Shown: positions 9,001 to 33,000 of the stretch, piece by piece
Numbering within the stretch: the stretch's first letter is position 1
Layout of the letters: each line of letters starts with the position of its first letter
NCBI GenBank assembly: GCA_044225175.1
Contig: JBGAJA010000002.1
Span: 216,949-280,948 of the forward strand
From: Candidatus Omnitrophota bacterium
GTDB taxonomy: Bacteria > Omnitrophota > Gorgyraeia > Zapsychrales > Fredricksoniimonadaceae
DNA: 64,000 nucleotides
Reading direction: 5' to 3'
Notes under the pieces: generated by a model
What the model was told of the DNA's origin: nothing
Seen by the model: the letters and a program-made list of their open reading frames with translations, nothing else
Database searches by the model: none
Translations under genes and position numbers: made by a program

Positions 9001-12000
9001 ACTATCGATGCTAAAGATTTAGCCACAGTTGAAACAACTCATCCTCAAGGATTAGCCAAAACAAATTTAACGAATGAACAATTGCAACAAGCCATCAAAG
9101 AAGGCCGTGTTCAATATGTCCAATTGTTCGATAAAGCCAATGGCGGATATCCTTATGCTAAGCTCGGCGTTGATGGACAACCAGATTATGATCAAAAGAA
9201 ATACTTTGCAGACACCCAAGATCATGAAGGCTATGAACCTGTTAGAACATTATTAGTCACAACCCCATCTAATTTCTCCATGATGAAAGCTGATGAACCT
9301 CCAGCAGCAGATCAAACAGTGTTAAGCCCGGCTGCTAAACAATTTATAGAAACTCAAATGAAAGATAAATCCATCGTATGGCTTCCTACTGGTGAAATGA
9401 AATATGTAACAGAAAAGCAACTGGTCGAAATGATCAAAGCAGGTACGGTTGTGGCTAATGAAGTTGTTAATAACAAAGGCGAAAAAGAGTGGCACTTACA
9501 GGTTAAAGTTAATGGAACATGGAAAAGCATTCAGTTGTCCAAAGAGATACTCGATACCGATGACAAACAAGCAGTTGCTAAAACATCGGATTTAGAAAAC
9601 GGAAAAATTGCTGTATCTATTTCAGAGAGTGAACTCAGAGCTCTAGTGAGTAAGGAAGGATTAAACGGACAGCATTTAACAACAAAGCATATCGAAGTAG
9701 AAAGCAAAGGTTACCCATATTTCTTAGACGCTAATTCTAATGGATTAAAAGATAAAAATGAGACAACGATCATTTACGGTTCTAAACCTAATGAATATAA
9801 AGAACGCTATCTTCCTCTTTTAACATTAAAACTTAAGGACATCGTCAGATTAAACAACGATGGTGAGAATCTTATCAGAGGCATTCAAGCCAACAGCTTC
9901 TTGGTCAACACCAAAAATGATTCGTACTATGTCTCTCTAGAGCAATTAAAAGCACAATACAATACCATCCGTCAAGAAGCTAAAGACTATCAAGTAACCA
10001 AGTTTGGTGTCAGTGGCTCACCGCTGATGAGAGTTTACTTAGGCTATAGTCAATTAGCTTCTCGTGTGGAAGTTGTGGAAAATTCAACTAGTTCAAAGAT
10101 TTATGCTTGGGACCAATTAACAAAAGAAAAAGGTTCTATTACAGTAAAAGGTCAACCTATCGGTCAAGTAACAGTGTCCAAAGATGCCCAAGGTAACAAA
10201 CGAGTCACAACCACAGATTTTAGGGCCAACAACACACAACGTATTGATATTTACAACGCTCAAAACAAACTCGAACGCAGTGAAAGACCATTGTCACAAG
10301 AAATTATTTATTTTGATACTGCGACTGGCCATGAAATTTATTCTGTGTCCATGGATACGGCTAAAGAACCAGGAGTTTCCTTAACAATCAATAACATCAA
10401 GGTAGAACATGTGACAGGCGTTTATGATTTTGAACCAAATGGTAACGGCCATAAAGTGGTCACATTCATTAACTTAAGAAATCTTTCAGATAATCGTGGA
10501 TACACTTCTGTTAGGAGATCCACATATAACAACGGTGTTGTCACAGAAGATTTAACAGGTTTTATTGAATTACCAGAACAGATCACAAGTAAAGAAGAAT
10601 TGTTCTTAAAAGTGACAGACAACTTTAAATTCAAAGATGCTTACGTTTATGATGAAGCTGGCAGTCATAAACTATTAAGAAGAGATGTTTCCTTCAAACC
10701 AAATGGCAATTGGATTAATGCCTGGTCTATTGTTGGAGGAGCTGAAGCAAAAGCACAGAAAACAGATGTTGTTAATTTCAATAAGATTATAGAGCATCGA
10801 GAAATTAAAGAAGCTTTAGCAGCCATCGATGTAACGGGCGATACATTATTAGAGCAATCCAGGGTCACCACAGATGATCAAACGGTCATATCCATCGATT
10901 TAAGACGTCCTTATGACCCTATTCAAAGAAAGATCATCACTGTTCGTAAAGAAGCAGATATCCTCCATAAAGATGTAACAAGAGTGATCGAAATCATTGT
11001 TGGTGTAGAGTTTGATCAAAGAACAGGAGAGGTTACAAAGTCCTACAAGCTGACACCAGATTATCAAATCAAAGGAGAATTCGAGACACTAACAGATTCG
11101 CAAATCACCTCCGCAGGATTAAATGTCAAAGCTCAAGGCCTATTGGCAAAGATCGCACCAATTTTGAAGAATATCCCTGAAGTCAAAGACCAAGACCTAT
11201 TCACAGCATTAAGACAAGTCGGTATTAACGAGAATACAAAGTTAACTGTACTGCGCGAAACTCCTAAAGCTTTAGAGGACGGTCAATATAAAGACAAGAA
11301 CTTAAACACCATTTATCACTTCTTAATTCCAAATGACAGTCGTGGACGTGATATTGCTGTGTTATATCCCAATAAAGATCTCGTGCTTAATTTGTGGTGG
11401 TTAGAAGGGCAAGATCTCAAGATCCGTGATAATGGAACAGTGAAATTAAAAGTTGGCGTTATCCCAGCTATGGTTGTTATAGATCAACAAGGTAACTTGA
11501 AAGAAACATTGGTTTATAAACCATCCAATGAAAAAGAACCAGCCTATAGCGTGTCTTTAGTAGACCGTAAAGAAGGCAAAGTAGTTGAGGGTGGACGTGA
11601 ACTAGCAACAGTTTCTAACGGTGCTGGACGATTATTAAAGGTTGAATACAAGAATGCAGATGGATCCACAGACTTAACAGCCGAAGGCTATGAGTATACC
11701 GTGCTTGATTCCAAGGTCAAGATGAGCGCATTTTATACCAATGGGGGTCAATTATTAGCTGAGAAGTATAGATACATTATTGCTCAACCAATGTTAAGAC
11801 AATTAGGGATGGTTTACAAAGGACAAGAAACAGTCATCTTTGATATTCGTTCCCCGTTCCGTAAGCCAATACAGTCTTTCTGGGATTTAGGCAAAACCAT
11901 TGAAGAAAAACAAATTGATTCTCAAAGAGTGATTGTCAAATCTTTTGAAACTGATCCTCAATTCTCAGCGATCAATAAGCGTGTGGTTGACGGCAATGAA

Positions 12001-15000
12001 GTCTATGATCAGTCGACAGTGATTGACTCCTATGAAGCTGAAGGGTTTGACTACCGCAAGTTCAAGAAACAAAGAACCCCGTATATCAATGATCAAATCG
12101 ATCAGAACGCAGGTGGTAAACACGTTCCCGATGTTTTACAGACATGGGGATCTGATTATCCTGCATGGGCCAACATAATTTCTGTTTTGATTGGTTTAAT
12201 TTCCTTTATCCTTATCTTTGGTAAACCTTTAGCATGGATAGGCCAGATCGTTCGATTCTTTACAAGCGAGAACAAACAAGCAGCCAGAAATGTTGCCCAA
12301 AGAATTGCTCCAAAAACGATTCAACAAATGGTCCTCGATTTAAATGCTTATCGTCATAGCGGCTATGGATTCCAAAAGGGCGCTCTGAATGAAGCCTACG
12401 GGGCCTTGGTTCGTGAATTAAAAGATCGTTTGTATGCAGGCGAAACATTAAACGGCATCACCACAGAATATTTCAGACGCTACCTTGAGAATTTCTTTAA
12501 ACCTGTCATGTCAAGAGTGTTGAACAAAGCTGAGTATCAAAGACAATTACAATTGATTGCAGGATATGGATTAGAAGAAATGTTCATCATGGAAGCAATT
12601 AATCGCGTTTCTGATAAAACAGCTAATGTAACTGCATCGGTTGATTTCTATCGATTCTATATAGCTATGCAAGAAAAGACGCATAATCCACTATTTGGTA
12701 TCAATGTTGAAGCTGATGCTAGATTATGGTCTTCTCTCTTATGGTTGCATCAATCTGGTCCAATTGTTAATCCAGCAAATAAGAAAAAATCAGACACCAT
12801 TCATCATGATGATGTCGATGGCATGTTTAGAACACCTGGCTTTATTAAATTTTATTCTACAGCTCAAGCTGAACAGGGTGGACTAACTGGTCGAGATTTG
12901 ATTGAAGAAGAATTAATGAAAGTCATTCGCTCAATTCCTGGAAAAGAAACAGTCACCATAGTTGAAGGATATGAATTCATCAGAAAAGCTTTGCCAAAGG
13001 ATATTCCTGCTGATGTCGCTCGAAAGGGGATCACGGTCAATCAAATAATAATGAAGGTTTATCCTGATATTAAAACCAGTGTATTTGGTATTTTAGGGTG
13101 GATCCGTATGATCATGAACGCCACCCCGCAATTTGTTGTAGCACTTGGAGTTTCAGCTTTAGCTTCCATCGGTTTAATTTGGATGAAGAAATCAGATATT
13201 GAAACATTGCAGATGTTGAGTTCTGGATATTTTGTTGCCGCTATCCTTGCTGTAACAGTCCTTACATTCTTTATGTACAAGGGAGCTAAATACGTTATCC
13301 GCAAAGCTTCCCCTGCAGCCTTCCACTTATTGTTAAGTATCTCAATGTTGGTCTTGATAGCCTTAGGCTGGTTTGCTCATGGATCCCTTGCGGCCATGAC
13401 AACAGCTGCCTATGCTGGATGGTTTACAGGGCTGACGATTTTCATCGCAGGTGTCGGTTTTATTTATCAGGCTTTGAAAGGGATTGACCGAAGATATTCT
13501 CAAAAAGTTTTAAAAGATAAGAATAAAGATAATTCAGATGAATGGACCATGGTTAATTTGGATGAACATGATCGCACACCAAAGGGGACATTGGGTCGTC
13601 AAGCAAGAGCTGCTGGGGTGATGATGGCCACATTATTGGCTAAATTTGTGGCTAATGTGTTTATTTGGAAATGGATCGCCGTACCGATATTAATCACATT
13701 AAACAGTCAATGGCAAATGGCAGATCTTTTTGGAGTGTTCCATGGCTTCACAGTACCCATGGGAGATAAGATTATCCTTGGGTTGACTCTTTCTGTATTC
13801 GCTGCCATTTTTATTTTGGACATATTTGCTTATTTCTATCTTATCGAAGGTGCTTTAGGGTATTGGATTGCTAAATTCAACGGTAATAATCGTATTAATT
13901 TCTGGAAACGCAATCAGGTTGTCTCCTATGGAGTTTTTGCGATAGCCGTTCTTGGCTTGGCAGGACTACTAGGAGTTCCTTATTTAAGCACAGGATTAAC
14001 AACAGCACTTACTTACATAGCTTCATTTAAAACTGTTGCAGTGATCTTGAATATTTTGAGTCACGTGCCTTTTGTGGGTACCACCCTCGTCAGTATGACA
14101 GGGCTTAAGATAGCAGTATGGATGGGCGTATTACTTAAACCAATCAATTTAATCTTAGGTTTCTTGAGCATTGAGAAAATTGGCGGTGACTCAGTGGTCG
14201 AGAAATTCGGTGTCAAAATGCACAAGGATACGGTTAAGATTGATCCCAATGGCGCAGCTCATCAATTCATGATCAAGAATCTTCCTCCAACGTATTTTAA
14301 TGATCAAGGCCAGCGCGAGGATTTAACTTTAGCACAACGTACAGTTGCCTTCGCCAAAGCCTTTAACATGATCATCTTGACCCTCTATGAAGATGATCTT
14401 ATTAATATGGATGAAGCTAGGGGCATGATTTTCGTATTTAGCTATGCAAACAAAACACGCCAAGAATCAGAGCTTGCAAGTCTCTTTGGTGAAGATCCAG
14501 ATGAAAACAATTTCTTAAACGGAACTATTATTAGAACACCACAGCTTCAAATAAGACCTGAAACATATCGCGTTCAAGACAGATTACAGAAATTTTTCTC
14601 AAGCATTTATATGGATATGTACCACATGCCGATTTATGAAATGATTAAAACGCACAGCACGATATTACCGTTTTTAGCTGAACCTGTTTTATATCCTTTT
14701 GCAGACCAAGATGTTAATGAATTTGAAGGGATTAATTCTCCCTACAAGCTCAATGAAAGAAAGGGCCACACAATTGCTAAGTATGGCACATTCTTAACTC
14801 ACATTATCAGAAGATCTCCAAATCAATGGGATAATTTCAAAGCTCGTCTCAGACGTGAGACAGAAATCGCCAGAGCTAATGGGACAATTGATCAAGAGAT
14901 CTACAATAGACGAATAGCAGATCTACAAATGATGGAGGATTTGAAATTTGGTCAACGCTTAGGAAAGAAGGAATTGGATCCTGCTGGCAAAAGGCATGCT

Positions 15001-18000
15001 TTAAATGATCCAGAGATGGAATTACAAATTCGTTTGTTTGCTTCATACCGCTTCCAGCCAATGGCCCGCTCAGCTCGCGGTATTATGAGATTTAGACAAA
15101 TGTATCAATTTCAGGCCAAGGTGAATTTCCCAACGAGACAATCCTTACTGGCTTTTGAGCAGTACAAAGAAGAAGGGTTAATGAACAGAAATGGCCTGCC
15201 AACCAATGGATATCAAGACAAGATTGATGCCTTGGCTGATGCGAAGTTTGAATTTATTGTTGGACCTCAAAGCTATGGAGAATATCTGGGTCATGTGACT
15301 AGGGATACATGGCAAGGATTGGCTGTAAGAGATATGAATCTCTTACTGAAATTATTCCCAGCGATGCAAATCGCCTATTTGCATAATCCTGATCGTGCCA
15401 TCGATTCTTATGCAGGTGTATCAGCTGTTTATTTAACCAGCCAAGAGTATGGGTCACTAGAAGAACAAATGCTGGTTTCCATCCAAGAACAATTGGATAA
15501 CAAGGAAAATATTACAAATCCAGACGTAAGAAATAGACTAAAAAATTCTCTTCAATTGTATCGATTTACAACAAGTGTAAATGGTGTGGAAACAGTGGTT
15601 GGTTATGTGGTCCGTAAGAATATTATTAAGTTGAACTCTCACTATTTTGCGGGTCAAGGTAAACCGGTTAACCAAAACAATTTGCTTAAATTTGTTCATG
15701 GGGAAATTGCCCAGTTAATGGATATCAACCAAGACTTCTATCTTGAAGAAACATTCAAAGGGCCAAATTTAGCGGAAGAGTTTAGATATGATCGAGATAC
15801 TGCCATTGTAGGATTCCCAGAAGACATCTTTACAGATGAGTTTTCACCAGCAGGTGAAGTTCATGCCTTTGGAGACCACACATTTACAACAATCACACAG
15901 CGTGTTTTAAACTTTATGGGAATTCGTTATCACTATGGTCATCCGGATTTTATCCGAACAATCTCCTTTAGACAATTAGGACTCTTTAGTGCTCCATGGG
16001 TCAATGAAGACATTTATGGTGCTTATAAGGCTACACTTTACGGTGAAAAAGTTATATTCAAGGAATTTATTCAAGCTGCTAAGGCTCGTGAAGTTGTTTA
16101 CATCGGCCTTGTCGGTATCTCAGATAAATTTGGCGCAGGCGCAGGTGAGCAAGCCATTGATCATAAGATGCAAGTTCTTAATCGATCTTCGATAATTGGA
16201 TTTTCCAGAGCATTCATGCACATAGTAGCTTCGATAGGATATTTCTTACGTAAACCAATTATCGTGATTGCAAGTGTCTTGTATTTATTAAATGTGGTGT
16301 TGTTTGGGTTAAGTTTCTTTGTCTCTTTCCCAGATGAATTAACATACGGAATGATAGGATTATTCTTATCTCAAGCGATAGGGTTGCCGGGTTATCTTCA
16401 ACTTGTCTTAGAGCGTATGATCATACCTAGTACGGTCAGATTCTTGAAACTATTACCCGTATTAGCTTTAACGTATATTTCTGTTCTTTTTAGCGCCTTC
16501 CAAGTTGGTGTAAAGAAGGCTTATGTCAATAGTGCAGATTATGTTGCAACAGGTCGTCGTGCTGGTCGACAACACATGGTGCCTTTTAAAGATACTCTAG
16601 GGTTAACTGGAGTGCATTTATATAACAAAGGAGATCTTTATGGGCAAGTCAATCTTCCTGGTATCGGCTGGCTTATCCCAGGAATAATGATTGTGACATC
16701 AGGACTCAAGTTATGGGCAAGTCCAGGATCGATTTGGTCTGCGATGCCTGTCTTCATGATTTTAGCCGGCATACTTGCGGTATTTATTATGAACCCCGGT
16801 TCCACACCGATTACATTTGGTATTCGTAAATTCTTTACGCAATATTTTGGAGAAAACCTCCCTCACTTCTTTGCTAAATTTGGGGCAGAAGCGCTTTACT
16901 TGAAAAACAAAAATTTAAAAACGACCGTATATGATCATCAAGGAATTGAATTTGGTCAAATCAATGAAAGAGCTAATACAAATGATATCAAGCTCGACAT
17001 GAAGAGATTCAAATTAGGTGTGGTTGTGTATACTGGCGCACTCGCCTTGACGATTTTGATTCTTATGAACGGCATTCCTTATCAAGGTTTATTGCTATTC
17101 CTCCTGTTGTATCCATTGTTAGGATTGGCTGGAAACAAGCAGTTAGAACGCCTATTAAAGAGTAAATACACCTTTAAAGAAATCTATAACGATAAAAAGG
17201 TCGAAATTCGAAATAATCATAGATTTGGACAGGGCAAAGAAGTATTTAAGAAAGTAGTTTTTGAATTTGGGTTAAAGATAAGAGAGTTTATTAATTTGTT
17301 CTTTGCAGGAACATTTGTCATGGGTTCTTTATTGATCATCGGCATTGTGACAGCAATTTTGATTAGTCTGCCTTATCAAATGGGAGTTCTCTTAAGAGCG
17401 TTGGTACCTAGCAAGATTGTTCCAAGATTTATAAGAATTTCTGGGTGGGTAGGTATGGCTTGGGTGGTTAATATCATAGCTTCCAATGTCGCTATGGGAC
17501 CATTAGGTATGGTAGCTATGTTAGTCTTTACTGGTGCCTTGTCTATAGGACTATTCACAGGCTCTCGCAGATCCGCTATAGAAAATATTAATGCCATGGA
17601 TTTTAGTTTCATCTCTCATCCAACTCAAGCTGGTCCAAGCAGAAAAATTAATCGAAGAGTTGCCATGGGGACTATTTCAGTTTTTGTGATTGCCCTTGGC
17701 ATTGCCAGTGTCAAAACAGGAATTGTTAACTTAAATCTATTTAATCGTGCTCCTGAGCAAACTACCCAATTAGAATCCAATACTTCTAAAGATATTCCAA
17801 ACGTTCAATCTCAAACTGAAGCTGTCACACCTTCTCCTGAACAATTGCAAACTACCGCAGCCCAAGAAGCCCAAAGACTTTCCAACGAAGTGATTAACAC
17901 CATTGATCCTCAAACCGTTCCAGGAATTGAAATTACTCCTATAGAAAAGGATTCAAAAGAATCTGTTGGCCCAACACCTGAAGAAGTGAAAGCCGCCGCT

Positions 18001-21000
18001 GACAAAGTGGAATCAGACAGAATCGCTGCTGAAAAGAAGCTGGCTAATGAAAAAGCTGAAGAAGAGATAAAGAAGGACATTGAAATCTTAAGAACAGGAA
18101 CTGCAGAGCAAAGACTAGGGGTGATCACCAGTTCATTACAAATGTCTGATGAGGCTATTAGAAAATTATTACCTGAAATCTTAGTTCTAGCTTATGACAA
18201 GGATGAACAAGTACGCACACAGGCCATTCTTTATCCTACAAAGATCCGCTTTCCAATTCTAACTGTTTATGGTGAAGAGCATGTCAATATACTTCATAAA
18301 CTAAATAAAAATACTTTAATTAAGAATGCTGAAAAGATGAATTTCTATTTAGGTTTGGAAAGCAGATTGTGGTCGGAACACTTCACAGATCATATGTTTG
18401 GGTATGAAGACGAATATCCTTTAATCTACACCTATACAATGACGACTCTTTATTTTTCTAATCTGACCGCTATCACTAATGATATTGCTATTCAAGAAGG
18501 CAACGAAGATCTTCTGCAAGCAAGAGAAGAAATGAGAGACGTGTATAGAGCTAGCATTGCTCAAATCCTCAATCTTTTGATCGATTCTCATGTCTATCTT
18601 CAAGAAACATTAGATCAATTTGAACTTGTTTTAAAAGACCATCCAGATTCACAAAGAGCCCATGAATATATTAAAGAAATCATCAGCTCGGTCAATCAAG
18701 ACAAGCAAAAGGCCATTGAAGATTATCTGAAACAGGAAGATTTAACCATCTGGAGAGAATGGATTCATATTTTTGCCGGAGTATTGACCGATAAAATTGA
18801 GCAGCTATATCCAGATAGAGGATTAGATTTCCATAAGATTAGAACATGGATAGCCAAGAAAGAAATGACTCGAGATGATATCCATGAGTTAAATAACGAT
18901 ATATCCATCGAATTTAGAAATCAAGCCTTTGCCCCGCATATGACAGATATCGCAGACAAAGGCATTAGTAACAATAGACCAACCTATATTATCACTGGTA
19001 AAGAGCATGTGCAGGGTCTGGCAGAGTTATTAGGTAGCAATTATCGAGGAATGAACATTTATTACCTTCTTGATCCTGCCGCACGCAAGGAAGCTGAAGA
19101 AGCTGCAAGAGCAAAAGCTGCAGAGGATAAAGCTCAAGCTGATAGAATTGCCGCTGAGAATAAACTTGCTGAAGAAAAAGCTGCAGAGACAACACGCATT
19201 CTTCAAGAACAAGAGGCTGCAAATAAAGCCGCCGCTGACAAAGCTGCCGCAGACAAGGCAGAAGCTGACAGAGTAGCTGAAGCTAAGAGGCTTGCAGATG
19301 AAAAGGCCGCTCAAGATAAAAAAGCCGCCGATCAAGCTGCCAAAGATGCAGCCTTTATCCAAACAATATTAGGAATCCTTTTGATTGTTCTTGGATCAGC
19401 GGGAGGATTACTCGCAATTATGTGGGGTATAAGACAGTTGTTTGAATTAAGAACGGCAAAGAAAAATCCTAAAGTGGAACCATTGCCAGGTGCTGTAAAG
19501 ACATCATCTGAAAAAGATAATCCTGTTTCAACTGTAAGTTCAAAAGCCCCTGATTATATTGTTGAAGATGGCGCTCCACGTCCTCGTGGCAATGGCAATA
19601 TTTCAGTTGCACCTCCAATAGCTGTTCCTCAAGTAATGCAGTCACCAAATGTTCCAGCTGTTCAACCACCAACTAGAGCTGGACCAAGTTGGTTACACAT
19701 AAATGTTCCAGCCACTCAATCACCAACTAGAGCTGGACCACGCAGGTTACAAATCATCGGTTTAATGGCAAGTATTGTAGTTCTTGGATTGATGTCGTTG
19801 TATGCCTTTAGTCCTTCGGAAAAAACACAGCACAATGTTCCAAATCCTTCTACAAAGATTACAGAGTCTGAACAATCCAAAGTCACAGATTCCAACACTG
19901 CAGAACAATCTCAGCCTAAGGCTGATCAGCCTACGGCTGAAGCTCTCGGTTCTGATGATCCAAAAGAAGTTTCTACACCTGAACCAGCAAGTGAAGCCAA
20001 AGAATCAACACCTGTAGTAGTATCACAACCTGAAGAACCTGCACAAGCTAAAGAAAATGAGTTTGATACAGCGACAGAGGAAGCTAAGAAACGAGAAGAG
20101 CAAGTTGAAGCGTTAAATCCAGATAATGTGAGAAGCTCTTTAGAAAAACGAGAATCTCCAGTTCAAGAGCCAATACCTCAAGAAATAGAAGCTAAAGTGC
20201 TACAAGATGCTCAAGCTGAAGCTGATCGTCAAGCTAGGGAAGAACAGCGTCTGTTGGATGAAAAGAAAGCTGCTGAAGAAAAGGAAGCCAAAGAGAAAGC
20301 AGAACAGGCTGCCCTCGCAAGAAGATTAGAAGAAGAACAAAAAGCCGCCGCCGATCAAGCTGCCAAAGAAGAGCAAATGCAGAAGCCTCCTGAAATAGAT
20401 CGTAAGAAATTAGAAGATGGTGTTATGAAACCAACTGAAGCAGACTATAAGGAAATTGCAGATAAGTTGGAGCGCATCAAAGAATGGCTTAAGAATAGAC
20501 CAGCTGATCAAAAAGATTCTCCCAAACGTTTTCCAGGCATCGTCGCAACAACAGATGCTCCAGCCCATATTTTAGTCAGTGAACCAAGTGGTATTGTAAG
20601 GGAAGCTACAGACATTCAAGAACGCGTGATGAGCGATGAGGAAAGAAACACATGGATCCGTTTAGTAAGTCCATACCCACAATTAGATAAAGACATTCGT
20701 TTTGTGATTATTGAAGATCCAGCCTTGCCGATAGCCATGCATCCTGTTGTGAAGAAATTCAAGCAAGCAGATGGAAGCACAGTCGTGATTTTCTTTGAAT
20801 TCATTAATCCTATGTTCTGGGGTATCAAAGATCCTGCTCGACAAGAAGACATGTTTTTCCATGAGATGCAAGATGTGATGAATTATGGTATGGAAGAACA
20901 AGCGATTTGGGAGATAGAAGCTAAAGCATGGACAGATTTAGATCGATTGGCTAAGTATATTGAATGGCTCAATGACAAGACCAAAGGAATCACAGTTGAT

Positions 21001-24000
21001 CCAAGATATATCAAGGCCTTAGCAAAAGCATTTCCTATTTCAGAGCCTGTAGAAGCACCTAAGGGTGATGGGACAATCATCAATGCTCCTCTTGATCAAA
21101 AGCAAGCTGCTTTAAAAGAACTCAAAGCAGAAGCTGAGAAATATAACACTGAGCACCCAGAACCAACTCCTCCTACAGAATATGATCACAATCAACGCTG
21201 GCTTGAAGGAAGAACAGAAGTAGTCCCTGCTGATGCACCAGCTCTTGTAGTGGAACAACAAGTAGAGGGTGTCATTGCGTCCGCCAAAGGCGGATCCGCC
21301 TTGGACGGAAGCGAAAAAGTGAAGCAGTCTGAAACCGAAGAAAAGATTGCCGCGTCGCCTACGGCTCCTCGCAATGACACGGTTGAAACATCACCCCTTA
21401 AGATCACATTAGATTTCTATACAGACATCAGCCAGCCTCTTGATGATACTAAAGCCACATTTGGATTTACCACATTAGATTTAGGTTTTGAAAAAGATGA
21501 GTGGCAATTTGGAGGATTGATTGAAGTTAATTCATTACGTTTAGATAATGACATCGACCATGCCGCGACATTCAAATGGAGAACATTCTACAATTTCAAT
21601 GAAAATATTGGCTTGGGGGTTCGTAAAACATTTACAACAGATAGTGATATTTCCGATCCTGTGTCATTTGGGGCGAAGTTCTTGATTAAAGATGTTGTGA
21701 GTGGGGAAGCATGGGTGTCCTATGCTGATGGTAAGACAGCCTGGCTCGGATTTATCAATAAAGACATTGGACCTGCTAGTTTGAGCTTAGGCTTGTTCCA
21801 TGCTGATCAGTGGGACGTTCAATTGACTGGCAGCCTCAAGTTAGACGAAGAAGGAACATGGAAAATATTTGGGGCCTATGACTTTGATGATCCACAGGTC
21901 GCTGCCTTGACCCATTTTACTCCTGACACTGGCCTTGTTCGCTTAGGAGGCACCTACTCATGGCAAGGACATGCGGTCAGCATCTACGTCTTTACCAGCT
22001 CCATTGATCAAGATGATCTCAAACCAGGCATTGGAATTATGTTTAGCTGGAATGCGCTGACAACCCAGCTTACAGAGGCAAATAACAGCGCTAATGGTAT
22101 GTTAGGGGATTGGTTTGAAAAATTAAGAACATTACCACTAACTCTAAGTGTCTATAACGACTTTACAACCAATAAGAACAGCCAGACTGGTCTTTTTGGT
22201 GTGACAGAGTTGAAATATAACGGAGAGCTCTTTAAGGCAGGTATTCAAGTAGAGTACACCAAAGGCTTTGAAGATCGTTATAACCTGACAGAAGGGATTG
22301 TGGATTTAAATCTCTTTGGAGAGTTTAAGCTGGTCAATGGATTAAGCGCATGGTTTGGACAGACAGTCAATGTTGGCAATGCTAATGACACCAAGGCTGC
22401 AGAGCCAACCAGTGTTGGGGTCAAGTATGAAAATGGGCCAGTCAGCGGGATCACCACATATTCATTTAATAAGGGTGATTATGAGAATGCTTGGTTAACA
22501 TTAAATACTCTTAAATTAACCGATGATCTGGCGATCGATTCAGGTTTATTCACCGATGGAAAACATACAGGCTGGCAATTAGGCGCAACATATAAATGGG
22601 TCTTTGTGAGAAGAAATTTCCGAGATGATTTATCTGGCACATGGTATGCCCCTGACACTGATACAAGAGTTGGATTAAACCTGATTCTGGGTCCTGTGAC
22701 AATCACCCCTTATGTTGGCATGTCAGATGATTTAAGTGAAATGAACAGTTTTGGAGTTGCCATTTTAGTCAATGTATTGACCGGTGAAGTAGTGGACACC
22801 AAGCCTATGTTTGAAAGTGAATTTTTGGACATGACGAAATTCAAGGCAGAAGTCTATACCGATGTAACGATCTTTGATGAATCAACAGCCATATTCTCTT
22901 ATTTAGATCTAAGTACCACAATCAAAGACATTGATGTGGGTGTTAACGTTGAAGTTAATGGATACATCGACAACTTGAATGATAATGGCTTGAATTTACC
23001 AGGAGCAACCGTGGCTGCCAAATTCAGGTTATTTGTTCCAACCGAGTGGGGTAAGTTAGGGTTAAGATACACAGCTCCATTGACCCATGGCTTGAGCAAT
23101 CCTATCTCTATTGGGGCCCTGAAAGAATTCAACTTTGGAGAAGACGCATGGATTAAGAAACTATCCAGTGAATTATGGGCCTCCTATAACCCAACGGATG
23201 AAAGGGCCAGCTTGTGGAGCATCAATAATACATCCATAGGCAATTTAGATTTGGGATTGGATATATTCCTTGGAGAAGGCGGCGATACAGGAATAGTCAC
23301 ACGAGCAGCATACTATTTTAATGATGAGAAGACATTTGGATGGATGTTCAATACGCAGCCCGTCAAAGAAGCAGGACAGATAGCTAGAGATTCATTCTTG
23401 ACGCTGGATTCAGGAGGCTTGCGCACTGGGCCGACCTTTAAATTAAGAGATAATATCATTGGGACGATCTATTTAGGGCTTGAAGAAAGAGAAGATGCCT
23501 TGCATCCACAAGATTGGAAAGACAAAGGATTGGTAGGCGCATCAATTAAGATCTCATTCTACAGCGACCTTCCTGTTCCACAGAAAGATCAAGACAAGGC
23601 CAAGGATGATTTTGGGGCCAATAAGACAATTGCTTTATCAAAAATCACGATCGTTAATGGAAATATAACATTCAAGATCATTACTGATGATACTCAAAGG
23701 AAACTTGGGCTATGGAATCAAGTGGTCTTTAAGCAAATCAAAGAGATTTTAAAAGCTGGCCGATCTCCTCCAAGTGAATTTACAGTGGAAATCACAACCG
23801 CAATTGATCATGTGGCAGCTTCCGACATTAACAACTCTAAAGTTTTCCTTCACCCATTCTATTTTGACCCATCCAATAAAGATCAACATTATAAAATGTT
23901 CTACCATGAACTGATCAGTCATATAGCAAATCACGAGAATGATGAACAAAAAGCAATGGCAGATACCAAGAAAGCTGTTGAACGAAAGACAGGAATTTTT

Positions 24001-27000
24001 GAAACCGTATTACTTGGAATAATCTTCGTTTGGGGGGCAATAATTATCATTAGAAGTATATTTAAAGGTTCTTTTGTATCGAATATTCAGAAATTTCCGC
24101 CTACAGATTATGCGTTAGACAAGCAAACAGAACGAGCATACCTTTCTGGTGAAGAAGATGCAGGTGACATTAAGGCCCGGGGATTCACAAGAGTCCATAC
24201 ACTTGTATTAGTCATAGCCGTCATAGGCACAATACTAGCACTGATTCTTACGAAAAATAGGTTCAACTCCCTATTTATGAACAGCAGACCCCAAGAAAAT
24301 AGGGAGTTGACCCTCATTTCTTATAAGCAAGATCATGGACAGCCTAGTGTGGAGTCTAAGGCAGATGCGTGGAAGATTTTAGATGAGAAGAATACAACCC
24401 CTCAACAATGGGCCCTTATACTTAAATGGAAAGAGGAACATAAAGCAGAATTAGCTAAAACAGGAAGTAACAAGCTGGTGTTTATTCTTCGTCCACAGCT
24501 TCCTACATTAGAATACTCAGAAGTAAAGAATTATACAGTCAATGGTAAGCCTTATAATATCTATTATCAAGTGATTAGCCCAAAGTGGTTTGATCAAACT
24601 AGTGATAAGAGTCCAGCGCCAAAAGCATCACAACCAGCCCCAAGAGTTAAGGTGGAGATTTCAAAATCAAAGCCATCGGAAAATAGGCAGTTGACCCCAA
24701 TTATTCCAGTGCCTCAAGCAAAGGCAGAGGTAAGTACAAGTCCTTCAGTTATGAGTCCGAAGACTGAAAATAGGGAGTTGACCCTCATTTCTAAGATTAC
24801 ACGTAAAGAACTTGGGGATGTTCCCGGGATTAAAGATTCTGTTGATCTTGTTATTTGGAATAATACTCAGGAAAGTCCTTTGGCTCGTTATGTGGGGACA
24901 ATTAAGCTGAGCTTAGATCAAGAGAATAAATATTTAAGCATTGTTAATGATCGTACTAAATCGGTAGAAGAGCGAGTGGAAGCATTGTTGGTCTTGACTA
25001 TGGCAGGCCATGAAGAAGTCCCTGAGATTGCTCGTAAGCTTATGGTTTACTATGATCCAGGCGCTAAATACTTTGGTTCTTATGTTAGCTTAACGGATAA
25101 AGTGGTTGGAAAAGTTGGGGCAGATGGTTTAACGCTTGGCGAAGAGGTGAACCTCAATAACATTATTAGCGGGCTCTTTGAGATGATGTATGACAATTAC
25201 ATGGTGGAACGCAATGCAGATGGTGATTTACGATTTGTCGCTGCTTTAACCATGGCTGCCTATGCCGAGCGTGGATATTTAGATAAACGTGAAAAGGTGT
25301 TCTTCATTTTTGATGGTGACAAGCTGGCCTTAAAGTATGCCAAGGAAGTTGAAGAGTCCTTAGGTAAATATTATAAGGAAAAACGCGAACCTAATGACCA
25401 AGTAGCCTTAGGCAAATTATTGGCTTCAGAAAAATTAAATGGACGATTGACCAAGGACGATGATATTAACGCTCAAAATACTTTAAGCGTCCTTCGCATG
25501 ATGGCAGACAGAGGCAATAAAGACATTTCCTATATGGCCTTAAGGGCGGCTCAAGCATTCCCTGATCCAGGTGTTTTTAAAGCACTTAAAGAGGAAATGA
25601 AAGTTAAACCAACAGATTTAGATGTCATGAAAATCCAAAGCGTTTCAGAAGGAAGCATAGATAGACAATTAGGGCTCATGGAAAATTTAGTACAAGGCAA
25701 GATGAATGGTGATGAACTTGGAAACACAAGCTGGAAAAATGAAATTGAGTTTATGGTCAATTCATTGGCAGCTAGATACAAAGGACAATCTAGAGAATGG
25801 AAAGAACATTTTGCTGCATACCTCGTTGCCAAATCTCAGGACATCCGACAAGGTAAGGTTGAAGAGATCAAGAATCTTATTTATGAACCTTTAGCCCGCA
25901 TCGTGTTATCAGATCAGTCAGATATTTTGGAAAGCACTATTCAGGGAATCAGACAGGTCCACCTCCAAGGGGAAACCAAAGACGAAGACCAGTTGCTGCA
26001 CGGAACACGACAAAGCCAAAAAGAAGCTGCCCAAAGATTATTAGAAAATCTTAACCCAAGAACGATTGCGGCCTTGGCTAAAACTATTCAAGAATCAGAA
26101 AACACAGATCTAGTTCAAATGATCTGGACTAAGACCCAAGAACAATTAAATAGCATTGGCGCTCAATTCGGAGAATATGATCCTTTGATTGTGGCGACCC
26201 GACAAAGAATTTTAAGTGAAACGGATGACAAAACAGTCTTAGCTGGGGTGAAATGGTTATTGGCCCGCCATGAAACAGTTGGTTCATCGACGGTTGCAAG
26301 AGTGTATGCCCATACCAAACAAAGAGACATCAAGCTTGCTATTTTAGAACAAGTCAACTCTAACCATGCCTTTAGTCCTGAGTTTGTTCTTCCTATCATC
26401 GAAGATTTAGCCAATGTCATTTTAGAACGTCTTCAAGGCAAATCAGCTCATCAAGAAGAACGCGCTTATGAAGCCTATCAAGACTATCTAAAAGTTCTCC
26501 ATGATTTATATCCCCAAGCTGTGCAAGAACGACTAAAAATCCAAATGGATGCTGTAAATTCGGCAGATCAAATACGAGTATGGAGCAATATTCTTAAAGA
26601 ACATGGAATTGCAGTCCCCTCAGCAGTATCGTTAATCAATGCCATCACATCTAACAACACCACAGATATTTTAAAAGCGATCAATGTGCCGGGCGTTATT
26701 GAAGCTTCTGCGGAAGACATTGATAGGCTTATGGAGGTGGTTACAAGTCCTAACACCTTGGAGACTGCCAAAGTAAGCTTAGTCCAAAATTATTTAGGAC
26801 GATTAAAAGTCAAAGCAGATTTTCGTTCTAGTTTATGGGATGACCCTGTTAGAGGCGGACTAGTCAGGCTTTATGATGGGGCATCGATTGATTTAAAAAG
26901 AGCTGTTTTACAAGCTTTGGCTACTCGCGGTATGAGAGAACAAGAATCCGTTGATGCTTTTGCTAGATTGTTCTCTCGCGAAGATGATCCTCAAGTCCAA

Positions 27001-30000
27001 ATCCAAGGAGCCATTTATGCCGGCAAAATACTTAAAGGAAAAGGAAATAAACAGATTTACACCAAATTAGTGGATGTATTAGTCAAGAATGTTGGCAGCG
27101 GAAGGACACAGGCAGACATTGATTTAGCAGATCAATTGGTCGATCAAGTTGGAGGAGCGCTTTATCTGCATTTAGAAGGTAACGCTCAAGAAGTGCAACT
27201 CAAAGAAGATGTAAAAGCGATTTTTGAAGCACGTCGAAGTTTAATTGACAATCCAATCAAACGATTGGTTATCAACGATGTTAAGTATATGCTTTATGGC
27301 ATCCCAGATCCTCATTCCCGTAATGGTGCTTGGGTTATTTCCCAAGCAGCGTTGGATCAAAATATTTCACGATCCGTTCAAACAATTAAATCTGTCATTA
27401 TTCCATCGGATGATTTGACCGTCCAAAGTCCAGAAGACAGTCTTTATTTATCAACGATCAAGAAAATCATTTTCAACACCAATACATCTCCAGACATTGT
27501 GAAAATACTGATCCAAAAGTTGTTTGATTTGGATTATCCAGCTGCCCAAGATTTAGCCCAACAAGGCTTTGATTATCTAATTTCCAGTGATATCCGCGAT
27601 GCAGAGTTCAAAAAGAATTTGATGAGTGTACGTGCAGGGACCAATACAGAAAAAGCTGCCAAGACAATAGCCCAAAGATTGAAAGACCATGATCCACGTA
27701 TCCGTTCTCATGCAGCATTATTAGTAGGCCAGATGAAAGATGCCCAGCAGAGGACCATTGTCCAAGATGTGCTGAGTGCTTATTTAATTGAAACAGAAGA
27801 GGCGATCAAGACCCAATACATGCCATTCTTTGTCAATCCTGCCAACGCAGAAGGTCTTATTAATGAAATTGTTGCAATCCGAAGAGATGCATCTAGCCGA
27901 AGGATCATTAAAGAAGCCAATGATCTAGAGGTTTTGATCCAACGCCCACAAAAGATAGTTTCAAAGAAGGATGTTTTAGTATCAGCGCCTGCAGGACCAT
28001 TTAAATTCTCATTAGATCCTTATATTGATTTACCACATTGGATCCGCGGCAGCTGGTTTGATTCCAACACCCATGAACAATATACAAAGCTGCAAAGACA
28101 CATGAATACTCTGTTTAATAACCCTTATGGTTCTTTATTAAATGGAGATCCAAAATTATCAGAAGCCATCTCAGGCTATAGTGAAGAACAGATGTTAGAT
28201 ATTCTTTTTGGAAATCACTCTTCTTTGGAACGAGCTACAGCAGCCATTGAGTTGGGTAAGAGTCAAGGGGATGTTCGCAAGAAGATCCAAAAGTTATTGA
28301 TGATTGTGGGTACTCCCAAAGAAGGTGAACCTGTTGTTGATGAGGATGCTCAAGTGGTGGATGCAGCATTGTGGGCTATTGCAACACTTCCGAAAGATCC
28401 GCAAGGAGGAAACTATCTACCAGCCAATATTTTTAAAGATTTGGTTTTAAATAAACATACTGATCAAACACGAATCTTAGCCCTATTGGCTTTACGACAG
28501 TCGACTGATATTCAAAAAGACCAGAAATTAGCAGAAATCATTGATTTATTAGCTAAAGATACAAGAAGTGTATTGACTTTGACAGCAGCGCTTGAAGTTG
28601 CCAGCCAATCCAATAGCACAGATGTTGCAGGTGCAGTGATTAATGTGTATAGCCACAGCGTGCGTAATCCATGGGCATTGGTACATCCAACTTTCATGCA
28701 TTTGACACAATTGCGAGACATTGTAGGAGTACCTGGAGCAATGGCCTATCAGGCAATTATGAAGATGGCTCAAGTTAACCATAATGAAGCTGAGATTGCC
28801 AATATCATTAAGACTCAAATTAGTAATAAAGTCATTGAAAGTGATTTTGCCACTATCTCCCGACAACTGTTACCTTTATTAAGAACAGTATCACTAAAAG
28901 ATGCATCTGTAGTTTATGACAATGGAGCTGCTACCCAGGAACAAGGGGTTTTATACAACCACTGGTTTGATGTTGAAATTGCCGATCCATTCTTAAGAAA
29001 TTTACACTGGTTTTTTGTGATGATTGGATTAGGCATATGGTCGTTTAAATACTTTAAAAATCGAAGAGTGCAGAACTTAGAAAGTGATGATTTTGACCAA
29101 CCCACTCCTCAACTAATTCCTAATGTTTCAACTAGTGAAGAGAATACAAAACTTCTGGGTAGGGCCAATGGAAAACCAAAAACATCGATCCAAATTCTTA
29201 ATGATAAACTTAAACTATGGCGGGAGATTTTAAATGCCCGACGCCAACTATGGAAAGCTGGACATCATCAACAAGCCCTTCTTACCGAATATAAGTTGGG
29301 GGTCATTTTAAATCAGATCTATCGTATTTTAGACATAACCTACCCAGATGAAGTTCAGGAAATTGTGGTTAATGAAAAGAAAATAGGCAACGTTTATGGC
29401 AGGATCATTGTTTTAATCGGCGAGACATTGAAGTTTTTGGATGAACAGCTTGATCCCAAGCATAAACATCTTTGGGATGACAATACTCGTTTAAGAATCC
29501 GTATGCTGGTAGCCGAATTCAAAGTCTTAGAAGAACAGATTATTCCTTATCGTGAAGCCATGATGTCTTTGCACAAAGTGCTTCTTTTGAAAGAAAGGAG
29601 ATTTTCTGTTTATAAAGGTGAAGGATGGATGAGTGTATGGAAGAATTTTGCAGAAGGCATTGTTTTAAAGTTTCCAGGATTTCAGTATAAAAGACAGATT
29701 GAAATGAGCATCAGAGAATTTATGAAAAGATTGGACATATTACTTGGAGACAATGACAGAAAACCAGAAATAATATCTAAATGGAGAGGTTTTTTTGAAA
29801 ACGGTATGTACCGCGAACAAATTTCAGAAGGTGATCCTAGGATTGCGGATCCTTTTGAAGAAACATGGAAAGATCAAAGGATTATCAGACATATTTTTAC
29901 AATTGCAGCTGTAGTTCTGCTTGGTTATCGTTGGTTTATTGTCAAAGAGTTTGCTTGGTGGGACACCGCCGTCATCGCCACATTGTATTTCAACGTTTCC

Positions 30001-33000
30001 GCCTATCGTTCCAAAGGGTTTTTGGTCCGCACCATGAAACGTGTGAAAGAACTAAACAGGGACATTCAACAGAGAAATCAGAAACAGTTCGAATTAGAGT
30101 TTGGAATGTCCATGAAGGATTGCAAGCTCGATCAACTGGAATACGAAAAAATTCAAAGCCGTACGTCTCAAGCTGTGGCCATAGGCAATGGTCCTCAACC
30201 TGTTGTCCATATGTTCTTTGTGGTACTTGAGAAGAATCAAATAGGAATAGCTTCCCAATTATTAGCTCAAAGTATGAAGACTGATCAGTTCTCTGGTCTT
30301 TGGTCTGTTCCTATTGTTTTCATTCCACAAACTATTCCAGGCAAGGGTGGAGCTTATTTGAATGCCCAAAGTTATTTTGAGGGGGTCAATACTATTGGCG
30401 AATTATGGCACAAATTATTGTCTTCGGACGAAGTGTATATTTTAGGCAGAAATCTTTACAATGAAACTTGGTCTAATGTTTCTGTTGAACTTTTACGACA
30501 TTCAACAATTATCAACTCCAGTGAGAAGACAGATGCCATGATGCAAGGCATCACACCTGTCGTGGATAAACTCGGTCTAACATTGTTGCCTGCCACTGAG
30601 AATATGATCAGCTCCTTAAGACGCGACATCACCTTCTTAGAAGATAAAATGATGTATACCTACAATGAAGTCTGGACAGATAGTAAAGAAGGCAAAGGCG
30701 TCAAGCTTTTCTTGCATGCAGATGGTTTTCGTGTAGGGCGAGTAGGGCGTCGCGGCAAAATAGACTTTGGTTCCATGTTCCTGACACTAGATGAGATCAT
30801 GGCTATGGGATTAGGGTTTCTTAATTATGATATTTTGACAGGGGTCATTAATACCATCTATGAAAAAACAGGAGAAGCTTTAACTCAGGAAGACATCGAG
30901 GGCTGGAAAAACGAATTCATTAAAAGAGGGCTAAATGCTCGTTTTGATATTGAAGATAAAAGAAGACTATTTCCTGCTTACATAGGGGCCTGGCGAGAAC
31001 AATTAGATTCTCATAATCGTCAAATCTTTATTACAGGCTTGATGGACTTAGTTCGTTTTATTGAGAAGTACGAATTTCAAGACAAAGCTGATCAATATAT
31101 TGATGAGAAGAAGTGGATGAAGAGTTCATCCGAGAGAGAAACATTGGAAGAGTTTATCAAATCAAAATTAAATGTTTCAAAGGAGGATGCATCTCGTCTC
31201 TTAGGGGAATGGACCATACAAGAAGATTGGGCGACACTTAGAAAGATTTTATCGGACTGGAATTTTAAAATCATTGCGGACCTTTTTATTCCTATGATCA
31301 TGGCTTCTCATGAAAAAAGTCCTCATTCTTGGAATGATGCTAGAGGTCTTCGTGAAAAGTATCCAATCATCTATGACGATTTCTATTGGGAGGTCTTTTC
31401 GATCCTCAACAAAGCATTTGCCAACAGTGGAATTTCATTCCATGCTCCATTTGCCCCTTACTTTAAAAAGGCCCATTTTTATAAAGTATCTAGCTATGCA
31501 CTACCCACAATGATTTTAATGGCGCTCGCCATACCCCAAATGGTTCCAGCGCTCTATTTGCTTTTAGCATTATCTCTAGCTGGTGTTGCGGGTTACTTTT
31601 TGAAAATCCCAACAGTAAAAATATTTCATTGGCTTTTTGGTGCCCGGGGTGCGGTATTTAGAGCGATTTCATTTTTATTTGCAGCAAGAAAAATCATCAC
31701 ACCATTCTTAGAAATCCATTTCATAGATAAACTTTTAGCAGCCAGCAGAATCCTCCTCTTACCATTTTCAGGCACAACCCTTGGCTTATTGTATTTTAAA
31801 GGAAACCATTACTCTTGGATTGAACCAGTAACACATATCGCTTCTGTTGCACTGACAGGGTTGTTTTTGATCGAAGCAGTGATTGAATTGGGGTACATTG
31901 CATACAATCGGTTCTTTCACGCTAAGAGCAAGAATAAAAACCAGCCCTTGAAATCTTCTAAATCACCTCATACCTTGATCAAAACTTTAAAGAAGTGGAT
32001 CAAAGCAATCATGTTTATTGTTGGTGGTTTTATATTATTGGGAGCTAGTGTTCTTTTTAACAGTCCTGCCTTAGCTCATGCCGGGGAAGTTCTGATTAAT
32101 ACGGGTCACTTCATCGAAGCCGGTAAAGCGGCATCAGATGAACATAAAATGTATCGCAAAGTAGGGTCCATCTTTGCAGGGTTAGGCGCTTTAACAGGGT
32201 TTTATTTGGCGGTCATGGAATTCGTATTTAGATTTACAGTTCACCTAGAATCATTAAAAGAAATATTCCATCACCAGCATGCAGCGATTATTCACTTAAG
32301 TATTTTATTTTGGGCAACTTCTTCCATCTTTGGTTTGGTTGAAATGATAGGAGAAACAAAGGCCGAGAAAATTTTGGCGGGTAAGTCATCAAGAAACAGC
32401 TTTGATAGACCTTTGCACGCCGTAGCAGCCTTAAGCGTAGATGAACAAGTGGCTTTAACTCCCTCAGCTCGTACGATCAATAAAGCTGCAAAGAAATTCA
32501 CTCCAGGTTTGAAGTTCGTGGTTTTAGCCCTGCCAGCCCAATCCTACATGGATTTTCATGGTAAGACGCACGCTCCCAATGTGTTTGATCCTGTTGATGC
32601 AAGAGGAGTAAAACAAGAGAAAAAACGTTTGTACACATTAAGCAAAGTAACAAAGAAAATATTTGGGCTGGCTCCAGGTAAGGTCTTTAAGAATGTGTAC
32701 TCGTCTAATGAGGAATCAACCGATCATGCAGTTGCAAGCTTAGGTGTAGAGGGGGCGCTTATTGGCGCGAATCGTTATGATGTTCCTCGTTTTTATCACT
32801 TTGGAGGTATTTTAAGAAAAGATGCGAGGCGAATTGCTCAAAATCAGTGGAGAAGATATCTTCAAGACCCAGTCCATTTTAATAATGGCCATTTAAACGG
32901 TCCTGACAGTATCAGAGCTGTTGAACGATTGATCGAAGATTGCGTCCGAGTTGACCATACCTTTATTGCAACTCATGAACTTCATGCGAAGCTGATTTTG

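Follow-up and report, generated by a model that had tools for sequence, protein, structure and literature searches.

The DNA considered here is a stretch of 64,000 nucleotides (nt) from a Candidatus Omnitrophota bacterium (contig JBGAJA010000002.1, positions 216,949 to 280,948), hereafter called the window, and our subject is one loop of the giant protein that it encodes, in which three tandem copies of a beta-strand-rich module are found. Frame 1 of the + strand is open across the whole 64-kb window, i.e., over 21,333 codons with zero stops, and none of the other frames contains an open stretch of at least 300 codons. The window, being a single open frame, thus lies within a giant gene, and its translation presents ~97 Kyte-Doolittle (KD) peaks above 1.6, grouped in bundles, which are candidates for alpha-helical transmembrane (TM) segments. 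The array of modules sits in a loop of ~1,400 residues between TM helices, whose layout is given below (amino acid (aa) positions are those of the translated frame).

nt 1..63999, + strand: giant open reading frame (ORF), internal piece with neither end inside the window; host protein of the predicted barrels
nt 19366..19422, + strand (aa 6456-6474): TM helix, first of the upstream hairpin (KD 19-residue mean 2.53)
nt 19753..19809, + strand (aa 6585-6603): TM helix, predicted N-in/C-out, signal-anchor for the barrel loop (KD mean 2.29)
nt 19810..20502, + strand (aa 6604-6834, 231 aa): E/A/K/P/Q-rich low-complexity spacer, from composition
nt 20503..21090, + strand (aa 6835-7030): orphan, mostly helical domain with the motif MFFHEMQD, read from the sequence
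nt 21091..21396, + strand (aa 7031-7132): second linker, E/A/P/K/T-rich, from composition
nt 21397..22128, + strand (aa 7133-7376): predicted barrel module A, 14 predicted strands over aa 7134-7356, last strand GIGIMFSW
nt 22129..22833, + strand (aa 7377-7611): predicted barrel module B, the most divergent copy, last strand FGVAILVNVL
nt 22834..23601, + strand (aa 7612-7867): predicted barrel module C, last strand VGASIKISFY
nt 23602..23994, + strand (aa 7868-7998): orphan domain with the motif LHPxYF...HE[LI]ISHI (here LHPFYF...YHELISHI), with a homologue in another giant ORF
nt 23995..24051, + strand (aa 7999-8017): TM helix closing the barrel loop (KD mean 2.58)
nt 24193..24249, + strand (aa 8065-8083): TM helix, second of the downstream hairpin (KD mean 2.76)

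The topology of this loop can be predicted from the charges around its helices. In the upstream hairpin, four lysines or arginines (K/R) follow the helix at aa 6456-6474, and the helix at aa 6585-6603 has three K/R and no aspartate or glutamate (D/E) in the 15 residues before it and one K/R after it. By the positive-inside rule, the K/R of loop 6475-6584 predict that this loop is cytoplasmic and hence that aa 6604-7998 are extracytoplasmic. The charges flanking the closing helix (aa 7999-8017) give no clear orientation. Since the array is internal in the chain, it carries no cleavable signal peptide, and its export is predicted from the upstream N-in helix and the positive-inside rule. Indeed, with an N-in/C-out helix and a spacer of 231 residues ahead of it and a helix at its end, the loop is most likely exported across the inner membrane.

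Three tandem modules and the predicted fold of module A

The three modules are homologous to each other. Modules A and C are related at 1e-5 by phmmer, and a profile built from four foreign modules only (described below) recovers A at 4e-51, B at 5e-10, and C at 2e-11, over nearly the full profile length. Module B is covered over positions 6-229 of the 245 of this profile, is found at 1e-13 by a profile built without B, and aligns with A over its full length. The linkers between the modules measure ~21 aa (A-B, with a short helix) and ~16 aa (B-C), and the module was not found elsewhere in the window.

By composition, aa 7133-7867 form the most beta-rich and most outer-membrane-protein (OMP)-like stretch of the giant protein. 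The residues G, N, D, T, S, Y, W, and F together make up 51-54% of it, versus a window mean of 36.5 +/- 5%, and its beta hydrophobic moment reaches 1.115, versus 0.789 +/- 0.099. Moreover, it contains 19 runs of strictly alternating hydrophobic and polar residues (at least 6 residues each), where shuffled versions contain 10.3 +/- 2.9 and only 7 shuffles out of 2000 attain 19. Equal-length windows elsewhere in the protein contain 8.3 +/- 2.9 such runs, and the best eight windows all overlap the barrel segment. The beta-amphipathic pattern is real and goes beyond chance. The original prediction, made by reading the sequence, had placed a beta-strand-rich amphipathic region at nt 21400-23690 in this same frame, and the alternating runs, the beta moment, and the composition confirm it. 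It was equally right about alpha-helical TM bundles in the same polypeptide, which are seen in the ~97 hydrophobic peaks and in the helices on both flanks. The barrel-like nature of the region also stands, but not the single domain of ~760 aa that had been drawn there, which is replaced by three homologous modules of ~240 aa. Its end at 23690 has to be moved as well: the array ends at nt 23601, and the final ~90 nt fall in the domain that follows.

The fold of module A was predicted with AlphaFold2 from a five-row alignment comprising A, B, C, and the modules of two homologous proteins, P0001 and P0002. The model obtained (mean predicted local distance difference test (pLDDT) 83.2, predicted template modelling score (pTM) 0.77) is an up-and-down meander of 14 strands, each 7-15 residues long, with one short helix in a long loop, and its first and last strands have a block pLDDT of ~88. 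Searched with Foldseek, this model gave 183 matches at E<=1e-3, the top 50 of which are all outer-membrane barrels, and it can be laid over OmpG at 3.1 A for 200 residues. Neither a sandwich nor a propeller, jelly-roll, or solenoid came up; the globular sandwich or propeller, named beforehand as the outcome that speaks against a barrel, did not come out of the structure prediction. Module A is thus predicted to fold as a closed 14-stranded porin-type barrel, and modules B and C would, judging from their sequences, adopt the same fold. With 14 strands, both termini lie on one side, which makes tandem barrels possible.

Several features of a membrane barrel accompany this fold. When the two faces of the strands are assigned from the DSSP strands of the module A model, the hydrophobic face comprises 79 residues, 70% of them hydrophobic, with 4 charged (5%) and 19 aromatic residues (I12, L10, V9, F8, W7), whereas the other face comprises 78 residues with 19 charged (24%) and 36% G/S/T, and is rich in S/G/T/D, not in K/E. 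Over all 7 known modules, the two faces are 67% versus 30% hydrophobic and 7% versus 23% charged. The aromatic residues at strand ends and the G/N/D-rich turns that had been read from the sequence are both recovered: on the hydrophobic face of the 7 modules, W and Y lie closer to the strand ends than aliphatic residues (p 0.02-0.05), and D, N, or G account for 21 of the 48 residues in the short turns of module A. In the model, the turns on the side of the termini have 2, 4, 3, 2, 6, and 2 residues and the loops on the opposite side 5, 2, 8, 2, 3, 18, and 9 residues, which would match the asymmetry commonly seen between turns in the periplasm and loops outside. Finally, the consensus of the signal that BAM, the machinery for beta-barrel assembly, reads in the last strand is GXXPhiXPhi (PMC13067283). 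The G of the last strand is invariant (7/7 modules), and the beta-signal is exact in module A (GIMFSW) and in the first module of a further locus, L004 (GILFNY).

Homologues of the module and known barrel systems

The module belongs to a very rare family. An exhaustive phmmer search against 1.84 billion representative proteins returned two proteins only, P0001 and P0002, and no free-standing module with its own signal peptide. P0001 (393 aa, encoded on an 18-kb contig with 1.2x coverage) carries one module with 40% identity. P0002 (1,376 aa) runs off the end of a 4.2-kb contig and contains two GGDEF stretches, TM helices, and then one module. A metagenome scan with a three-row module alignment added one locus, L004 (Ga0082335_1000071, a 309-kb metagenome contig), a continuous open frame of 6,886 codons with two tandem modules. 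Scans of GTDB genomes and of IMG/VR gave no match to the module. A word-indexed search of 5.8 billion clusters, with the segment and with a five-module alignment, gave no match either, and did not recover the known P0001 and P0002.

Outside the window, only four homologous modules were hence found, all on giant-gene-like fragments. Their copy number varies, i.e., one in P0001 and in P0002, two in L004, and three in the window, and so do their neighbours (glucan synthase, GGDEF, or histidine kinase). The module is thus a rare cassette of variable copy number, so far seen only in giant-gene-like contexts. The existence of homologues with one, two, and three modules implies that the unit is autonomous and not a turn of a long helix. 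In P0002 and L004, as in the window, a helix precedes the module, located ~180-250 residues upstream and with an arginine-rich N-flank (N-in).

In L004, the cassette of 891 aa, i.e., one TM helix and two barrel modules, lies between direct repeats of ~135 nt (~45 aa) located at nt 8907-9037 and 11580-11700 (aa ~2965-3010 and ~3856-3898). These repeats share the perfectly identical blocks ATTTCATTGGGCCGTTGCAG, TCCCGTGGCGGGTTGAG, and ACGGCCCTTTCTCATTCCAAGCG, separated by divergent spacers, and encode in frame ..FIGPLQ..SRGGLR..LSHSKRHP. The repeat belongs to no Rfam family and is absent from the window; it could be a scar left when a mobile cassette recombined, or else a site of processing. A LysM-like stretch was also seen in L004, but this resemblance is by eye only, has no Pfam support, and was not used.

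Among known structures, the porins of the OmpG, CymA, and Omp33 type (PDB 2f1c, 4d5b, 6gie) have the 14-stranded monomeric fold in common with the module A model. The sequence identity is however 7-9%, with no profile-level homology, and the module, unlike these porins, has no cleavable signal peptide and is internal and triplicated in a polypeptide of > 21,000 aa. Its loops are also much shorter than those of OmpG or CymA, the strands using up nearly all of the 244 residues.

The multibarrel OMPs (Solan, Pereira, Lupas, Kolodny, Ben-Tal, PNAS 2021; PMC8346858) likewise contain complete barrels joined by short linkers in one chain. Their linkers have a median of 22 +/- 13, and the ~21 and ~16 aa of the window fall within this range; they arise by lineage-specific amplification, and the 34 architectures described are mostly 8-stranded, those with at least three barrels being all but one poly-8 (PMC8346858). 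By contrast, Pfam and PDB searches linked the modules of the window to no known outer-membrane beta-barrel family. The main text of that study mentions neither a 14-stranded unit nor a TM helix, whereas the array described here lies inside a polytopic inner-membrane giant.

The closest precedent for the overall arrangement is Dma1 of Bacteroides thetaiotaomicron, in which one polypeptide was shown experimentally to comprise an inner-membrane helix, then a disordered linker, and at the C terminus an 8-stranded barrel, with the barrel in vesicles (PMC10927553). This published case runs against the statement, made in the original prediction, that inner-membrane helices and an outer-membrane barrel do not normally coexist in one chain. 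The window resembles Dma proteins by the inner-membrane alpha-helix, the long low-complexity linker (231 aa), and the outer-membrane-type barrel in one chain, all of them predicted. P0002 resembles them further by its signalling domains (two GGDEF), predicted cytoplasmic, ahead of the helices and the barrel. The differences are clear too. The Dma barrel is single, C-terminal, and of the OMP_b-brl_2 family, and an anti-sigma domain stands at the N terminus, whereas the window has three internal barrels, predicted to be 14-stranded and without family match, and, by Pfam, no anti-sigma or OMP_b-brl_2 domain; moreover, its chain is predicted to return to the inner membrane after the barrels, so that the array would be tethered on both sides. 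What appears to be new is thus a barrel family that occurs in three copies within a polytopic giant, with a tether on either side.

Flanks of the array and the rest of the giant protein

The spacer that opens the loop (aa 6604-6834) contains 18.6% E, 13% A, 11.3% K, 8.2% P, and 8.2% Q, and its hydrophobic residues amount to 14% versus 36% for the whole protein. It is probably disordered or a single alpha-helix, and is a candidate for a periplasm-spanning tether. Two kinds of repeats were observed in this neighbourhood. A tandem duplication of 54 nt (nt 19647-19754, 85% identity), encoding NVPAVQPPTRAGPSWLHI / NVPATQSPTRAGPRRLQI, falls in the predicted cytoplasmic loop, directly before the helix at aa 6585-6603. 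A unit of 42 nt, encoding an A/E/K/D-rich heptad-like text (AADKAAAD...), is present in seven degenerate copies (nt 19116-19346 and 20253-20369); as these copies lie on both sides of the TM hairpin, the same type of low-complexity spacer occurs before and after it.

Two orphan domains bracket the array. The upstream one (aa 6835-7030) has no sequence match in Pfam, NCBIfam, or PDB, and its structure model is of low confidence. The downstream one (aa 7868-7998) has no match in Pfam or PDB and directly adjoins the next TM helix; a homologue exists in the unrelated giant ORF of L004 (aa 635-731, nt 1904-2194, 3.8e-14, LHPQYF...HHEIISHI), where it is not beside the barrels. The two domains share a pattern, i.e., a beta-strand, P.F, then MF[FY]HE[ML], with the motifs HEMQD and HELISH, and may represent a degenerate metal-binding or peptidase-like module. 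We considered them as zinc peptidases, but the motifs are non-canonical and match no family, and we keep this idea as a lead only.

A Pfam scan of all 21,333 residues found few domains in the host protein.

nt 15598-16299, + strand (aa ~5200-5433): Glucan_synthase/GT48 domain, eukaryote-type 1,3-beta-glucan synthase (Pfam E 2.5e-50)
nt 27610-27774, + strand (aa ~9204-9258): HEAT_2 (Pfam 1.7e-8)
nt 47980-48228, + strand: weak match to a GNAT acetyltransferase (Pfam 5.9e-4, just under the Pfam cutoff)
nt 58672-59589, + strand (aa ~19558-19863): PPDK_N, the ATP-grasp of pyruvate phosphate dikinase (Pfam E 1.1e-15)
nt 61669-61893, + strand: weak match to a methyltransferase (Pfam 0.018)

The TM bundle that follows the glucan synthase domain reaches aa ~5909. 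By Pfam, no SecA_DEAD, C39, or S8 domain was found in the 21,333 residues of the window; SecA could lie beyond it. Three further stretches, aa 251-750, 1251-1500, and 2501-2750 (nt ~751-2250, 3751-4500, and 7501-8250), have their G/N/D/T/S/Y/W/F content raised to 42-50%, without excess of alternating runs and with nothing that resembles the barrel module; further beta-rich domains outside the cytoplasm may lie there.

A scan of the GTDB species genomes with the synthase region gave as match a Ca. Omnitrophota metagenome-assembled genome (L001, JADGCU010000003), which is the nearest relative of the host giant protein among these genomes. L001 is a continuous open frame, colinear with aa 3332-5859 of the window at 27-48% identity. 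The homology ends abruptly at aa ~5860, the two proteins being unrelated beyond, and the 3,300 residues of L001 that follow the conserved synthase region contain no module. The idea that the barrels serve as the export channel of the glucan synthase, located ~1,200 residues upstream, was consequently rejected as a general rule, because L001 keeps the synthase without barrel and because the module lies elsewhere beside GGDEF or histidine kinase domains.

The host also resembles the Archaeovorin-type proteins (West-Roberts et al. 2023, bioRxiv 10.1101/2023.11.21.568195), being a giant ORF with many TM helices, HEAT, a glycosyltransferase, and PPDK. It differs from them in that the divergent SecA DEAD-helicase domain, present in most of these, was not found in the window, and in that its glycosyltransferase is of the GT48 glucan-synthase type, not GT5 or GT1.

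Proposed location of the barrels in the envelope

We propose that aa 7133-7867 are three tandem OmpG/CymA-like 14-stranded barrels, carried by an exported loop and inserted in the cell's own outer membrane, and we give this reading a probability of about one half. The presence of an outer membrane is plausible, since Omnitrophota carry homologues of outer-membrane secretin components (PMC10066038). The loop of ~1,400 residues would be threaded out through Sec, and its E/A/K/P-rich spacer would cross the periplasm. The BAM machinery would then take up the barrels via their GxxPhixPhi-type last strand and insert them side by side in the outer membrane, with their N and C termini toward the periplasm and their longer loops outward. 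In this way the outer membrane would be covalently stapled to the inner-membrane-anchored giant, or else three small pores would stand fixed over the giant. The analysis shows how the repeats are laid out, that they are amphipathic, that their family is rare, and which fold is predicted for module A; from there we infer the rest of this picture, i.e., the periplasmic location, the BAM dependence, the outer-membrane insertion, and the uncut chain. A stronger version, in which one uncut chain lives in both membranes, with dozens of inner-membrane alpha-helices and three BAM-assembled internal outer-membrane barrels tethered on both sides, is a possibility that we consider less likely than not.

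A number of points weigh against the insertion of these barrels in the outer membrane. Some concern the barrels themselves. The alignment behind the module A model has five rows, three of which are the window's own repeats, and a model of the whole loop (aa 6835-7998, three-row alignment) has a mean pLDDT of 33.8 and is informative neither way. Module B (GVAILV) and module C (GASIKI) have the beta-signal in aliphatic versions only. The outward orientation of the hydrophobic face is deduced from the lumen size of a 14-stranded barrel and from the S/G/T/D-rich composition of the other face. As for the family searches suggested in the original prediction, Pfam, NCBIfam, and PDB, by phmmer and profile, gave no significant match to OMP or porin families, the best being OMP_b-brl at E 0.23. 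The published surveys of giant Omnitrophota proteins also stress that topology predictions are unreliable and contain no convincing beta-barrel calls: two giant-gene surveys report no outer-membrane-type barrels and one of them no credible beta-barrel call in 916-947 proteins. Other points concern the topology. Only ~143 residues, apparently a folded domain, separate the last strand of barrel C from the helix at aa 7999, and this C-terminal tether is short for crossing the periplasm. In L004, the barrels are followed by a histidine-kinase HATPase_c domain (1.5e-23, aa ~3900-4210, nt ~11700-12630) with the H-box HEIIHELKN, and the next hydrophobic helix comes only ~2,000 residues past the barrels; as none lies between them, this ATP-dependent domain would be on the same side as the barrels. 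West-Roberts et al. report similarly implausible localisations for other domains of giant proteins (10.1101/2023.11.21.568195). The L004 puzzle may indicate either that topology prediction fails in giant proteins or that giant proteins are processed.

This last point leads to the possibility that the barrels are genuine outer-membrane barrels of a polyprotein, whose precursor is cleaved close to the array by peptidases, perhaps the flanking domains with HE motifs or others, thus releasing free porins or a free tri-barrel without bridging the membranes. Both the short C-terminal tether and the absence of a returning helix in L004 are easier to understand if the chain is cleaved, and the ~45-aa peptide repeated around the TM-plus-barrel cassette of L004 could be a processing site. 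Cleavage has parallels as well, since West-Roberts et al. propose that C39 and S8 peptidase domains cut giant proteins (10.1101/2023.11.21.568195) and since Dma1 also gives C-terminal barrel fragments in vesicles (PMC10927553). The array does lie between two orphan domains whose motifs are of the HExx(x)[HD] type, but HEMQD and HELISH differ from the canonical HExxH, and no peptidase family is matched in these flanking domains or anywhere else in the window. No cleavage site is known, and the exhaustive search turned up no free-standing module bearing a signal peptide. We therefore regard such a polyprotein as quite unlikely; if the barrels are simply excised and act like any other porin, what is left is a new OMP family whose precursor is unusual.

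The original prediction had left the choice between a soluble beta array and a protein that contacts both membranes. The barrel part of this alternative now has a model in module A, and the outer-membrane location has become the reading that we favour, with the L004 context speaking against a simple topology. A soluble or surface-exposed hollow beta structure, such as a tubule of ~1,500 aa or a lipid- or glycan-binding barrel, would mean that AlphaFold2 closes the single repeat into an OmpG-like barrel only because it is folded alone. Tubules have indeed been described in Archaeovorin-type and Dockerin-type proteins; such a tubule is a continuous hollow helix of antiparallel sheets, ~1,500 aa long, with regularly spaced exterior helices, modelled with AlphaFold2 in other giant Omnitrophota proteins (West-Roberts et al., 10.1101/2023.11.21.568195, Fig. 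5). The short helices between our modules, the shallow alignment behind the module A model, the lack of a confident model for the whole array, the absence of sequence homology to OMPs, and the topology of L004, which sets the barrels beside a kinase domain, would all fit with such a structure. Module A closes on itself, its first and last strands being modelled with confidence, and it can be superposed on OmpG, and the homologues with one, two, or three modules argue for an autonomous unit. Moreover, one strand face has 67-70% hydrophobic and 4-7% charged residues over ~80 positions in each module, which would be highly unfavourable on the surface of a soluble protein; lining a 14-stranded barrel, such a face would enclose a wide and empty apolar lumen, and the polar face is rich in S/G/T/D instead of K/E. 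On balance, we consider a non-membrane structure unlikely.

One can also imagine that the barrels are sent into a prey or host cell's envelope and open channels there. Such an attack pore fits the predatory role proposed for giant Omnitrophota proteins, giant ORFs of Omnitrophota and of episymbionts having been proposed to attach to hosts and form pores (PMC10066038), and the barrels are carried by a long flexible spacer. The loop is however predicted to be anchored at both ends in the producer's own membrane, and the proposed prey include archaea, which have no outer membrane. Beta pore-forming toxins build their barrels from the hairpins of many subunits, not from preformed 14-stranded monomers. 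Barrels of the latter kind normally need BAM in the same cell for their insertion (PMC13067283). Overall, we regard delivery into a foreign envelope as very unlikely.

The giant proteins of Omnitrophota rank with the largest known and pose questions of function and topology. If the insertion of the three barrels in the outer membrane is true, it would be the first concrete sign that a giant Omnitrophota protein reaches the outer membrane, and it would extend the Dma class to internal, multiple, and 14-stranded barrels. It also puts a question to the BAM machinery: can a barrel with both ends held in the inner membrane be assembled? If the chain is moreover uncut and spans both membranes, BAM would fold barrels from a loop without free end, and the barrels would be a covalent staple or a contact site between the two membranes. 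In any case, the module, with no Pfam match and two matches among 1.84 billion representatives, is a target for the definition of a new family. Should the uncut chain hold, giant Omnitrophota proteins would organise the whole envelope of these bacteria, and not only their inner membrane.

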